Shown here piece by piece: positions 19,685-37,144 of a stretch of DNA of 64,000 bases (position 1 is the stretch's first letter; each line of letters starts with the position of its first letter). Origin of the DNA: an uncultured Alphaproteobacteria bacterium (lineage in GTDB: Bacteria; Pseudomonadota; Alphaproteobacteria; Reyranellales; Reyranellaceae); assembly GCA_963820155.1 (NCBI GenBank), contig CAWFYW010000017.1, forward strand, positions 651,020-715,019, in the 5' to 3' direction. Made by a program: the position numbers and the translations under genes. The notes beneath the pieces were generated by a model. That model worked only from the letters and a program-made list of their open reading frames with translations, did not search any database and was not told the origin of the DNA.

Positions 19685-19790
19685 AAAGAAAAAGCCGGCG
19701 GTCGACAGGGAGGCTGAGGATCGACCGCCGGCCAGGGTCCGGAGAGGGATGAGCCCGCGCAGGGTAGGAAACGGGCTCGCTCCGGATTTG
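19685..19790 (-). ncRNA. Putative cuckoo/CcsR-like sRNA in the DUF1127 3' region (two hairpins with C/U-rich loops, U-tail)
   Basis: Minus strand: stem uccggag-c-gagcccg/cgggcuc-aucccu-cuccgga with loop uuuccuacccugcg, then a 12-bp stem gccggcggucga/ucgaccgccggc with loop uccucagccucccug, then UUUUUCUUU. Confidence 0.55.
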
Positions 19791-19795
19791 AAGGA

Positions 19796-19999
19796 TCAGC
19801 CGCGCCAGAAGGGCTTGCTGGCTTCGAACTGGATCTCGCTGGTGCTGAGGCCGAGGTCGCGGATCGTGCGGCGGTCGAGCGTGGCCAGCTCGCGGCGTTC
19901 GCGCGCCCGGCGGCGCCAGGTGGCGAGGATCTGGTTGAAGGCGGTGAAGGTGCCGGCCAGCGGCGCCTTGGAACTGTAGTGGAGCGAGATGTCGGCCAT
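19796..19999 (-). CDS. DUF1127 (YjiS/CcaF1-like) small protein
   Basis: WRRRARERRELATLDRRTIRDLGLS...EASKPFWRG is the DUF1127 signature. Confidence 0.9.
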   Translation of the reverse strand: MADISLHYSSKAPLAGTFTAFNQILATWRRRARERRELATLDRRTIRDLGLSTSEIQFEASKPFWRG

Positions 20000-20116
20000 G
20001 GGACTCTCCCCGATGGAGTGCTGTCTGTCTGGCGGGTGATTTGGCCGTGCCGGGGGTGCTTTACAAATGACCCTTTGTCCTGTTTTGATAACTTTCCCTC
20101 ATGTGATGGATGGGCC

Positions 20117-21028
20117 ATGAAGCGAACCCTGCCGCCGCTCAACGGATTGCGTGCCTTCGAAGCCGCCGCACGCCACATGAGCTTTACCGATGCCGCCGAG
20201 GAATTGAGCGTCACCCAGGCCGCCATCAGCCACCAGGTGCGCGGGCTGGAACTGCGCCTCGGATTAAAATTGTTCGTGCGCCGCAATCGCTCGCTGCTGC
20301 TGTCCGAGGCCGGCCAGGCCTATCTCCCTTCGGTGCGCGCGGCCTTCGACCAGTTGAACGAGGCCACGGAGAAGCTGCTGCAGAAGGATCGCGGCGGTCA
20401 CCTCACGGTCACCACCACGTCCTCTTTTGCCGTGAAATGGCTGGTGCCGCGGCTGGGCGGCTTCCAGCGCGCCCATCCGGAGATCGACGTGCGGGTCAGC
20501 ACCGGCACGGGCCTGATCGATTTTTCGCGCGAGGACGTCGATATCGGCATCCGCTACGGCCGCGGCCAGTGGCCGTCGCTCACCGCCGAGCGGCTGGTGA
20601 CGGAGGACATCATGCCGGTCTGCGCGCCGTCGCTGGCCAAGGGACCGAACGCGCTCAAGAAGCCGGCCGACCTCAAGCGCTTCACGCTGCTGCATATCGG
20701 CAGCTTTCCCGACGACTGGCAGATCTGGCTGACCGCCGCCGGCGTGAAGGGCGTCGATTCTTCCCGCGGCGTCTCCTTCGATTTTCCGCTCGCTGCCTAT
20801 CAGGCGGCGATGGACGGGTTGGGCGTGGCGCTCGGCCGTCAGCCGCTGGTGGCGCCCGACCTCAAGGCCGGCCGCCTGGTCGTGCCCTTCGAGTTCAAGA
20901 TGTCGACCGAGCTCGCCTACTACCTGGTCTATCCGCCGGAGGCGATCCGGCGGCGCAAGATCAAGGCCTTCCGCGACTGGGTCGTGTCGCTGGCCGAAGT
21001 CGAGCCGCAGCCTGCGCTGTCATCCTGA
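20117..21028 (+). CDS. GcvA-like LysR family transcriptional regulator
   Basis: LPPLNGLRAFEAAARHMSFTDAAEELSVTQAAISHQV, FAVKWLVPRL, DVDIGIRYGRGQW. Confidence 0.9.
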   Translation: MKRTLPPLNGLRAFEAAARHMSFTDAAEELSVTQAAISHQVRGLELRLGLKLFVRRNRSLLLSEAGQAYLPSVRAAFDQLNEATEKLLQKDRGGHLTVTTTSSFAVKWLVPRLGGFQRAHPEIDVRVSTGTGLIDFSREDVDIGIRYGRGQWPSLTAERLVTEDIMPVCAPSLAKGPNALKKPADLKRFTLLHIGSFPDDWQIWLTAAGVKGVDSSRGVSFDFPLAAYQAAMDGLGVALGRQPLVAPDLKAGRLVVPFEFKMSTELAYYLVYPPEAIRRRKIKAFRDWVVSLAEVEPQPALSS

Positions 21029-21032
21029 GAGA

Positions 21033-21050
21033 TATCTGCATTTACAAATA
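21033..21050. promoter_or_regulatory. Imperfect palindrome, candidate MarR operator for the LLM-marR operon
   Basis: tatctgcatttacaaata matches its own reverse complement at 12/18 positions and sits in the only AT-rich stretch upstream of the LLM gene. Confidence 0.35.
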
Positions 21051-21090
21051 ACCGGGCTCGCCGCATCCTCCGCCAAAACAGGAGGACGCC

Positions 21091-22149
21091 ATGGAGTTCG
21101 GGTATTTCACCCTGAGCGACAATCGCTACCCGGGCAATCCGCGCACTGCCGAGGCCTTCATCAAGGATATCTATGAAGAGGCGCTGTGGGCCGAGAAGGT
21201 GGGGCTTCATTCGGCCTGGATCGGCGAGCATCACTTCAATCTCCTGGGCGTCAATGCCTCGCCGCTCGCCCTCCTGGCGCAACTCGCCGGCGCCACGACC
21301 AGGCTGCGGCTCGCGCCCGCGGTGACGCTGCTGCCGGTGCATCATCCGCTGCATGTCGCCGAGGAATGGGCGACGCTCGACCTGTTGTCGGGCGGGCGCG
21401 TCGATTTCGCCGCCGGCCGCGGCTACGACCGCAAGGAGTACGAGCCCTTCGGCGCGCCGTTCGACCAGTCGGCCGAACTGTTCGCCGAGGCGCTGGAGAT
21501 CGTGTGGCGCGCCTGGACCGAGCCCGGCAAGTGGTCGCACAAGGGCCGGTTCTACGCGTTCGAGGACGTCGAGGTGCGGCCCAGGCCGGCGCAGCAGCCG
21601 CTTCGGCCCTATGTCGCCTGCTTCTCGCGGCCTTCCATGGAGCTCGCCGCCCGCCACGACTGGAACGTGATCTACGCGCCCTTTGCCGCCGCCATGGTCT
21701 ATGGCTCGCTGGCCGATGCCGTGCGTGTCTATCGCGAGACCTGCGAAAGCCAGTTCAAGCGGCCCATGCGCCGCGCCATGTGCTCCTACTTCGTGCATAT
21801 CGCCTCGACGCCCGAGGAGGAGCGCTACGGCAAGGAGGCCCTGGTGCGCTATTTCCAGGACGCGCTGATCGCAGCCTTCCCCTCGTCGTCGGGCGAGAAG
21901 GTGCCGCCGACATACAAGTACTTCGTCGACATCGTGAACATCCTGCGCGACATGCGGCCGGAGAAGCTCACCGACAAGTCGATCCTGTGCGGCAGCCCGC
22001 AGCACATCGTCGACACCCTGAAGACGGTCGAGGCATCGGGCGTCGCCGAGGTCATCCTCTATTTCAACTACGGCCAGAAGCCCCACGCCCTGGTGAAGGA
22101 GCAGATGGAACGCTTCATGCGCGACGTGGCGCCCCATTTCTCCCGCTGA
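21091..22149 (+). CDS. LLM class flavin-dependent oxidoreductase (luciferase-like)
   Basis: WIGEHHF, HHPLHVAEEWATLDLLSGGRVDFAAGRGY. AGGAGG RBS. Confidence 0.9.
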   Translation: MEFGYFTLSDNRYPGNPRTAEAFIKDIYEEALWAEKVGLHSAWIGEHHFNLLGVNASPLALLAQLAGATTRLRLAPAVTLLPVHHPLHVAEEWATLDLLSGGRVDFAAGRGYDRKEYEPFGAPFDQSAELFAEALEIVWRAWTEPGKWSHKGRFYAFEDVEVRPRPAQQPLRPYVACFSRPSMELAARHDWNVIYAPFAAAMVYGSLADAVRVYRETCESQFKRPMRRAMCSYFVHIASTPEEERYGKEALVRYFQDALIAAFPSSSGEKVPPTYKYFVDIVNILRDMRPEKLTDKSILCGSPQHIVDTLKTVEASGVAEVILYFNYGQKPHALVKEQMERFMRDVAPHFSR

Positions 22150-37059: not shown

Positions 37060-37144
37060 TGTTGTCCGCTCCTCCCAGCGACGCTGAACGTACGTTTACC
37101 GGTGGTCCGCAGGCAAGGCCCGGCCTGCAAGGAAGCCATGCATG

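Follow-up and report, generated by a model that had tools for sequence, protein, structure and literature searches.

A conserved two-hairpin RNA element downstream of a DUF1127 gene in Reyranella-type bacteria, probably a distant relative of the cuckoo/CcsR small RNAs

In the stretch of contig CAWFYW010000017.1 analyzed here (64,000 nucleotides (nt) from an uncultured member of the alphaproteobacterial family Reyranellaceae, hereafter the window), a gene for a small DUF1127 protein is followed on the same strand by a structured RNA element. The 111 nt located 3' of the DUF1127 stop codon (19795-19685, minus strand) fold into a two-tier hairpin (hairpin 1) and a terminator hairpin (hairpin 2), followed by the U-tract UUUUUCUUU. 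With moderate confidence, we interpret this structured RNA of about 100 nt in the 3' untranslated region (UTR) of the DUF1127 messenger RNA (mRNA) as a divergent cuckoo/CcsR-like small RNA (sRNA) that would be controlled by the neighbouring LysR-type regulator. The element probably works like a cuckoo/CcsR RNA and is probably distantly related to this group. The finding is real and conserved, yet not startling to a specialist. DUF1127 proteins number in the tens of thousands; to our knowledge, a function has been assigned only to CcaF1 and a few others.

A first-pass annotation of the window, made from its letters only, had described two strong hairpins with exposed C/U-rich loops and an exposed bulge AUCCCU, followed by a U-tail. 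The fold bears this description out, on the minus strand and at that place, with a z score of -3.77; none of 200 shuffled sequences was as stable. Hairpin 2 has the features of an intrinsic terminator: its 12-base pair (bp) stem is rich in G+C, UUUUUCUUU follows directly, and assembled RNA contigs from related bacteria end at 19689-19691. A sigma-70 promoter and terminator scanner called neither a promoter nor a terminator between 19400 and 20400. Its silence on the terminator is explained by the 15-nt loop, which lies beyond the 3-8-nt limit of the scanner.

Relatives of the locus were collected by a scan for DUF1127 proteins with one genome per species, which yielded 65 loci. The 44 closest are from Reyranella or Reyranella-like metagenome-assembled genomes and from R. 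aquatilis KCTC 52223. The element was aligned for the 42 loci in which it is not cut short, and a model-fitted alignment of 43 copies was used for the analysis of covariation. In all 42 uncut Reyranella-type loci the element lies directly 3' of the stop codon. Furthermore, a DNA pattern scan recovered at least 26 further complete elements, including those of R. soli NBRC 108950 and of a complete Reyranella chromosome; among the matches listed, 26 of 26 elements stand directly after a DUF1127 open reading frame (ORF) with the motif FE..KPFW. The mean identity to the window is 86% for the element, 82% for the coding sequence, 75% for the 150 nt upstream and 64% for the 100 nt downstream. A covariance model built from the 42 orthologous copies (R1) gave a single match in the 64-kb window (129 bits) and a single match behind each orthologous gene (86-134 bits), so that 43 of 43 matches lie behind that gene. 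Weaker matches (21-37 bits) were obtained behind the gene in more distant relatives, and no unlinked copy was found in the window and the fetched loci. An apparent second copy in locus L047 (3730-3815, 23 bits) turned out to be the terminator of an unrelated gene and was subsequently used as the background level of the model.

The proportion of paired cells in the 43-copy alignment is 98%, as compared to 91% in shuffles and 24-50% with slid partners, and none of 500 shuffles reaches any of the five covariation measures. The inner stem of hairpin 1 exists in versions such as GAGCCCG, GGGCCCG, GGUCC, GGGGCCUG, GGGACCUG, GGAGGCC, GGAAACCC and GAGGCCCC, with compensatory double changes at seven of its seven pairs, and every orthologue folded alone, without the alignment, gives the same shape. 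The pyrimidine-rich single-stranded patches UACCCUG, GCCUCCCUG and the internal loop are held constant. ACCCUG is invariant in all 42 protein-selected copies, GCCUCCC is present in 42 of 42 copies, and the hairpin 2 loop motif GCCUCCCUG is essentially invariant; the internal-loop patch is less strictly kept, being pyrimidine-rich throughout and containing CCCUCU in most copies. Loops that are kept while the inner stem turns over are the hallmark of a functional RNA that exposes recognition sequences, and not of a plain terminator. The first-pass annotation, which had proposed to look for covariation across relatives, had reasoned that conserved stems combined with variable loops, together with the lack of a stable processed RNA, would mean an ordinary terminator; for stems and loops the reverse is observed, with invariant loops beside a fully covarying inner stem.

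The same data bear on the simplest explanation, an ordinary 3' end in which an intrinsic terminator and a stabilizing hairpin appear conserved because of slow divergence within a genus-level group. We regard this as unlikely, even though hairpin 2 and its U-tract look like a functional terminator at which contigs end, and shared ancestry could explain part of the invariance, since a single family supplied most of the 43 close copies. The sequence past the U-tract diverges, at 64% identity, and the element has changed less than the coding sequence. Moreover, the inner stem was fully replaced many times (for example GAGCCCG, GGGGCCUG, GGAAACCC and GGAGGCC) next to unchanged loops, a terminator loop of 13-15 nt is atypical, and distant relatives swap the stems while they retain CUCCC in the loop.

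The outer stem of hairpin 1 and the terminator stem are nearly sequence-invariant among 56 distinct copies, in which the terminator stem shows three types of variants, two of them compensatory. Invariance of helix sequence fits sequence-specific protein recognition better than mere pairing, and one idea is that such recognition would account for the near-invariance of the 12-bp terminator stem in loci L001-L044 and L186-L303. The sequence-kept, non-covarying helices (CCGGAG/CUCCGG and the 12-bp stem) would also suit an element that acts exclusively in cis, either as an mRNA platform for the DUF1127 protein, Hfq or another protein, or by pairing with the gene's own Shine-Dalgarno sequence GGGGAG, and that thereby sets stability or translation. 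Such a role, the main alternative and one that we consider possible but doubtful, agrees with the single copy of the element, which was not seen away from the DUF1127 gene either with the R1 model or among the pattern-scan matches listed, with the seven pairs that CUCCCUG could form with CGGGGAG at the gene's own ribosome-binding site, and with the binding of CcaF1-type proteins to their own transcript (PMC8034643). The Shine-Dalgarno sequence varies, however (GGGGAG, CGGAGA, AAGGAG), while the loops are constant, and no co-variation was found for a 5'-3' pairing; the closest known relatives, in addition, act in trans. Action in cis and action in trans are not mutually exclusive.

A last alternative places the function at the level of DNA, with the perfect inverted repeat GCCGGCGGTCGA-N15-TCGACCGCCGGC as a protein-binding palindrome, e.g. 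the operator of the downstream gene for a tetratricopeptide-repeat (TPR) protein. The sequence invariance of both repeat arms would be expected from this, and the TPR gene follows the element in the same orientation in 41 of the 41 Reyranella-type loci with DNA extending past it. The spacer, i.e. the loop, is conserved as much as the arms and asymmetrically, though, only one strand shows conservation of the U-tract, the TPR gene lies anywhere between about 30 and more than 1000 nt from the element, and hairpin 1 covaries in the fashion of an RNA. We consider a DNA element very improbable. Both the ordinary terminator and the DNA operator fit the data poorly.

Expression was assessed on assembled metatranscriptome contigs of relatives from eight runs (soil, sediment and rhizosphere) with 85-100% likeness to the window. 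These contigs cover both the DUF1127 coding sequence and the element, and several of them join the two, e.g. those matching 19689-19897 and 19686-19871. Three contigs end in the U-tract, whereas two read through towards the TPR gene. In related soil bacteria, coding sequence and element are thus on one RNA, which often ends in the U-tract. In none of the eight assemblies is 20022-20105 covered by a contig, the DUF1127 coding side being covered up to about 20005-20024, and one contig covers the start of the LysR gene. Such a gap would be expected if transcription began a short way upstream of the ribosome-binding site and if the two divergent transcripts were separate.

When the ccaF1-ccsR system of Rhodobacter is taken as the analogy, the favoured interpretation can be drawn out as follows. 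The adjacent GcvA-type LysR would control a promoter within the 117 nt between the divergent genes, from which the transcript would start, and hairpin 2 would end transcription. Cleavage in the A/U-rich spacer before hairpin 1 would then release the 3' part, or this part would outlive the mRNA. In Rhodobacter, CcsR RNAs are made out of the ccaF1 3' UTR by RNase E, aided by CcaF1 (PMC8034643), and the spacer may likewise serve as an RNase E entry site; its length and sequence vary among the orthologues except for a short A/U-rich stretch before CCGGAG. The exposed CCCUG and CUCCC loops may pair with G-rich ribosome-binding regions of target mRNAs, Hfq would probably sit on the U-tail, and the co-encoded DUF1127 protein may bind the RNA or modulate its maturation.

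The proposed regulator was assigned to the GcvA subfamily by NCBIfam NF008352 (384.9 bits against a cut-off of 288, residues 1-294), which upholds the divergent GcvA-like LysR of the first-pass annotation; its best solved relative is GcvA in PDB entry 8y6u (E 1e-81). Each of the 44 Reyranella-type loci has a divergent LysR gene upstream of the DUF1127 gene, with 86-96% amino acid (aa) identity, a few of the matches ending early at contig ends, and it is better conserved there than the DUF1127 protein. In 14 more distant loci the identity is 42-71%, and the gene is also present in the loci of Afipia and Thalassospira, which lack the element. The intergenic region between the two genes contains a conserved A/T-rich block with a 13-nt box (Table 1). 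Exactly two copies of the 13-mer TTTACAAAYRACC are present in the window, where none is expected; the second stands upstream of the monooxygenase gene located after the LysR gene. This second box is kept about 40-46 nt upstream of the monooxygenase gene in 25 orthologous loci, even past intervening genes. A box at both promoters suggests one regulator that would act on both, most simply the LysR protein, and the box may be a shared operator for the DUF1127 and monooxygenase promoters. TTTGTA-N17-CCAAAT is a possible promoter with a predicted transcription start near 20030; it is only loosely RpoH-like when compared to the TTG/TAT description for Rhodobacter.

The first-pass annotation had also brought in LsrB/VtlR-type regulators, and this comparison was reduced to an analogy. 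VtlR/LsrB is a documented LysR activator of DUF1127 genes and, in Brucella, a regulator of the small RNA AbcR2, and it is encoded next to trxB (PMC12595884), whereas the neighbours here are the DUF1127 gene and a luciferase-like monooxygenase gene. The regulator described here belongs to the GcvA subfamily, and the VtlR box CAATGCAGCCATGCA has no match with up to three mismatches in 20000-20116; its sole match in the window is at 37128.

The relation to the cuckoo RNAs was analyzed by published rules and by covariance models. Cuckoo RNAs consist of two to four adjacent hairpins with CCUCCUCCC in each loop, and their largest subgroup, CIN1, adjoins a DUF1127 ORF (PMC4615179). The published sizes are 24-50 nt for hairpins and 9-27 for loops, with interruptions of at most 6, a linker of at most 10 and a helix of at least 6 bp (PMC4615179). 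The Reyranella element falls within these limits, with hairpins of 47 and 39 nt, loops of 12 and 15, a linker of 6 and internal loops of 1 and 6, and it has the context of CIN1, beginning 10 nt past the stop codon of a PF06568 ORF, as is likewise the case in the 43 and the at least 26 further loci. The Rfam model CcsR1 (RF02791, gathering threshold 65.3 bits) matches the site with 18.1 bits in a search of 701 nt. In relatives it reaches 25.5 (L012), 30.4 (L045), 29.7 (L047) and 28.1 bits (L052), with E values down to 4e-4. CcsR1 is the only Rfam family that recurs at the site, and no other CcsR1 match was found in the 64.6 kb of loci. The match lies mostly in hairpin 2 (CGGCG.CACC, CUCCC and GGUG.CGCCG, then the U-tail), which aligns to the second hairpin of Rfam CcsR1. 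In the reverse direction, at least 120 canonical cuckoo loci were chosen by a DNA pattern for the double motif CCTCCTCCC. The R1 model matches canonical cuckoo RNAs of Rhodobacterales and Rhizobiales with 25-42 bits and E values to 4.5e-11, among them RNAs of Ruegeria, Tropicibacter, Roseovarius, Paracoccaceae and Ochrobactrum. Nine matches exceed the 23-bit background set by the unrelated terminator, and nine of nine are on cuckoo positions.

Several observations weigh against the interpretation as a cuckoo/CcsR-like sRNA acting in trans under LysR control. The exact motif CCUCCUCCC is in neither loop, be it in the window or in all 42 aligned orthologues. CcsR1 stays far under 65.3 bits everywhere, and its match at the window site is gone in a window-wide search: across the whole window Rfam gave nothing at gathering thresholds and, at E values up to 10, four chance-level matches elsewhere but none at the site. 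The reciprocal matches are partly circular because CCTCCTCCC was the basis on which the canonical loci were selected, and a G+C-rich terminator by itself can score about 23 bits with the R1 model. When 80 of the at least 120 canonical loci (L066-L145) were compared by tblastn, their DUF1127 ORFs showed 26-48% identity over 21-58 residues (E 0.004-0.9). Over the domain, the identity to these canonical-locus ORFs is 28-43%. The FEASKPFW tail is absent from the DUF1127 ORFs of these 80 loci, and the Reyranella DUF1127 protein appears, judged by its sequence, to be of a different subfamily from those beside canonical cuckoo RNAs. A GcvA-like LysR is likewise absent from the canonical loci compared. 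The support for LysR control consists solely of the conserved divergent gene order and the conserved A/T-rich box. Judged by contig depth, the 3' part is no more abundant than the coding sequence. As for targets in trans, the window is not enriched in complements of the loops: the loop 2 complement CAGGGAGGC has 31 matches with up to one mismatch in the window, with 30.6 expected, and the loop 1 complement GCAGGGTA has two matches in the window, one of which is the element itself. Because of the missing CCUCCUCCC, the sub-threshold Rfam scores, the circularity of the reverse matches, the apparently different DUF1127 subfamily, the lack of a LysR gene in canonical loci and the single copy, the element is not a cuckoo member by the family's own definition. 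The cuckoo/CcsR reading of the first-pass annotation thus stands in part: context, size rules, C/U-rich loops and cross-matches speak for it, while CCUCCUCCC is absent and the covariance-model search that had been proposed does match the site with CcsR1, but at 18 bits against 65.3 and with no significance window-wide. Its remark that the lineage lacked a description holds, as Reyranellaceae are outside the reported range of cuckoo/CIN1 RNAs, which covers Rhodobacteraceae, four Rhizobiales families and Polymorphum only (PMC4615179; PMC8034643).

More distant relatives, with 41-54% identity in the DUF1127 protein and all with a LysR gene upstream, follow the same plan but have different stems. 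In L045-L053 there is a hairpin with loop UUUCCCUG and a terminator GCCGGCGACACC/GGUGUCGCCGGC with loop UUUCCGCUCCCAG, whereas L051, L057 and L063 have the terminator alone, with a 7-nt loop UUCCUCCCA, UCCCUCCCA or UCGCUCCCA; related loops are UUUCCCUG, CCGCUCCCAG and UUCCUCCCA. The two-hairpin element is missing behind the LysR-DUF1127 pair of Thalassospira (L065) and Afipia (L056). In Afipia clevelandensis ATCC 49720 (L056:2678-2730), single-stranded UCCCCUG stands on either side of a terminator hairpin, and the CCCUG motif may outlast the structure. Within the closer group, locus L033 (2720-2874) has an additional 28-nt hairpin that separates the outer stem of hairpin 1 from the inner one; its spacer, directly after the stop codon, carries a literal CCUCCUCCC, and among the copies of the element seen it alone contains the canonical cuckoo 9-mer. 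The last hairpin of canonical cuckoo RNAs in Ruegeria and Tropicibacter also begins with CGGCGGU.

A known partnership between a protein gene and a small RNA is here extended to a new family, in which the seed motif has changed, the RNA is single-copy and the GcvA-type LysR is a fixed partner. The comparison marks the pairing with the protein gene, the two hairpins and the exposed C-rich loops ending in CCCUG as essential, and the literal CCUCCUCCC and tandem copies as dispensable. Motif-anchored cuckoo searches miss such relatives, which are recovered by the covariance model R1. The module is compact and genetically tractable in the cultured strains R. soli NBRC 108950 and R. aquatilis KCTC 52223, and it lets one ask which signal switches such an RNA on and what a DUF1127 protein recognises. 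More tentatively, and with clear doubts on our side, the locus could represent a distinct old branch of the DUF1127/cuckoo systems: a bifunctional transcript, encoding a small RNA-binding protein and a 3'-UTR sRNA, would be hard-wired to a GcvA-type LysR sensor, the seed would be CCCUG and not CCUCCUCCC, and the DUF1127 protein would recognise the invariant stems CCGGAG/CUCCGG and GCCGGCGGUCGA/UCGACCGCCGGC. In the cuckoo/CcsR papers considered here, no transcription factor dedicated to these RNAs is described. Should this bolder proposal be true, the LysR protein would be the first transcription factor, and hence the first small-molecule signal, tied to a cuckoo-type RNA, and the stems would be the first defined RNA motif for a DUF1127 protein.

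The DUF1127 gene named in the first-pass annotation was verified with Pfam PF06568 (28.1 bits against a gathering cut-off of 23.3, residues 25-57), and orthologues from Reyranella-type genomes share 63-93% identity. The DUF1127 and LysR ORFs are arranged head-to-head. The start region UGCUAGAGGCCGCGCGUG of the TPR gene recurs in many loci. The mechanical ORF list further contains a 76-aa ORF antisense to the DUF1127 gene (19749-19979, plus strand) and a GTG-extended LysR version of 349 aa (19979-21028, plus strand), which are most likely artefacts of high G+C; the LysR alignment with relatives begins at the ATG at 20117.

Table 1. Features of the DUF1127-LysR locus and of its 3' element (window coordinates)
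Feature	Position	Strand	Basis or remark
DUF1127 ORF, 67 aa, C-terminal motif FEASKPFWRG	19796-19999	-	ATG start; ORF call and Pfam
Shine-Dalgarno sequence GGGGAGAG of the DUF1127 gene	20004-20011	-	Seven bases before ATG; purine-rich GGAG core kept in orthologues
Spacer UCCUUCAAAU, single-stranded, stop codon to hairpin 1, A/U-rich end	19786-19795	-	Possible RNase E entry site
Hairpin 1, 47 nt, two-tiered	19739-19785	-	Fold; same shape in each orthologue folded alone
Hairpin 1 outer stem CCGGAG/CUCCGG, 6 bp	19780-19785 with 19739-19744	-	Fold
Hairpin 1 inner stem, 8 bp	19771-19778 with 19751-19758	-	Fold, covariation
Hairpin 1 apical loop UUCCUACCCUGC, 12 nt	19759-19770	-	Contains ACCCUG (19760-19765)
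Hairpin 1 3' internal loop AUCCCU	19745-19750	-	Fold
Linker ACCCUG between hairpins, 6 nt	19733-19738	-	ACACUG in most relatives
Hairpin 2 (terminator hairpin), 39 nt, 12-bp G+C-rich stem GCCGGCGGUCGA/UCGACCGCCGGC	19721-19732 with 19694-19705	-	
Hairpin 2 loop UCCUCAGCCUCCCUG, 15 nt, anti-Shine-Dalgarno-like	19706-19720	-	
U-tract UUUUUCUUU, transcript 3' end	19685-19693	-	Sequence and contig ends
Conserved A/T-rich intergenic block ATCACATGAG..TTATCAAAACAGGACAAAGGGTCATTTGTAAAG	20059-20106	-	Near-invariant columns, 44 upstream regions aligned; candidate LysR operator overlapping possible -35
Dyad ACAAA-N6-TTTGT	20063-20078		In conserved block
Box TTTACAAATGACC	20060-20072	+	Inside conserved block
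Possible -10 CCAAAT	20039-20044	-	17 nt downstream of TTTGTA (20062-20067); CA and T columns conserved
GcvA-subfamily LysR gene, 303 aa, divergent from DUF1127 gene	20117-21028	+	Pfam HTH_1 and LysR_substrate
Second box TTTACAAATAACC	21041-21053	+	38 nt upstream of monooxygenase ORF
Luciferase-like monooxygenase ORF	21091-22149		Follows LysR gene; Pfam Bac_luciferase
TPR protein gene, 405 aa	18434-19651	-	Starts 34 nt past 3' element

Among known systems, the closest is that of the cuckoo/CcsR RNAs with CcaF1 of Rhodobacter sphaeroides (RSs0680a-d). CcsR-type sRNAs share a transcript with a DUF1127 gene and are released from it through RNase E; stress induces them from an RpoHI/HII promoter, and Hfq binds them. 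The Reyranella element shares with them the position directly 3' of a same-strand DUF1127 gene of 65-71 aa, two adjacent hairpins, large C/U-rich, anti-Shine-Dalgarno-like loops ending in CCCUG and a last hairpin that begins with CGGCGG and is followed by a U-tail; the covariance models cross-match weakly in both directions. It differs from them in its loops, UUCCUACCCUGC and UCCUCAGCCUCCCUG, neither of which has CCUCCUCCC, in its two-tiered hairpin 1 with a third C/U patch in the internal loop, in its constant pairing with a divergent GcvA-type LysR gene, in its occurrence in a lineage outside the reported range and in its single copy, which, compared to tandem clusters of 2-9, counts against membership. 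The ar14, NfeR and SmelC397-type cuckoo RNAs of Rhizobiales have similar loop chemistry, and some are found with DUF1127 ORFs, but their hairpins number three or four, and they are often located 5' of the DUF1127 ORF or are free-standing, with a promoter of their own (PMC8034643). The family ar14 gave no Rfam match at the window site or in the loci of relatives, even at E values up to 10. NCBI files Reyranellaceae under Hyphomicrobiales, the order of these Rhizobiales RNAs, while record titles use Reyranellales.

The Burkholderia anti-hemB RNA (RF02837) resembles the element in that a terminator follows a hairpin whose loop is of the CUCCCUG type, but its score is at chance level (12.4 bits, E 5), and gene context and lineage are unrelated. 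In E. coli, the GcvA-gcvB and OxyR-oxyS pairs are examples of LysR regulators encoded divergently from, or next to, the small-RNA gene that they control. The element has no similarity to GcvB, OxyS or AbcR in Rfam. The likeness to GcvA-gcvB, OxyR-oxyS and VtlR-AbcR2 is one of arrangement, with a LysR gene head-to-head with a short structured-RNA transcript; unlike in those systems, the divergent transcript of the Reyranella-type locus is also protein-coding.

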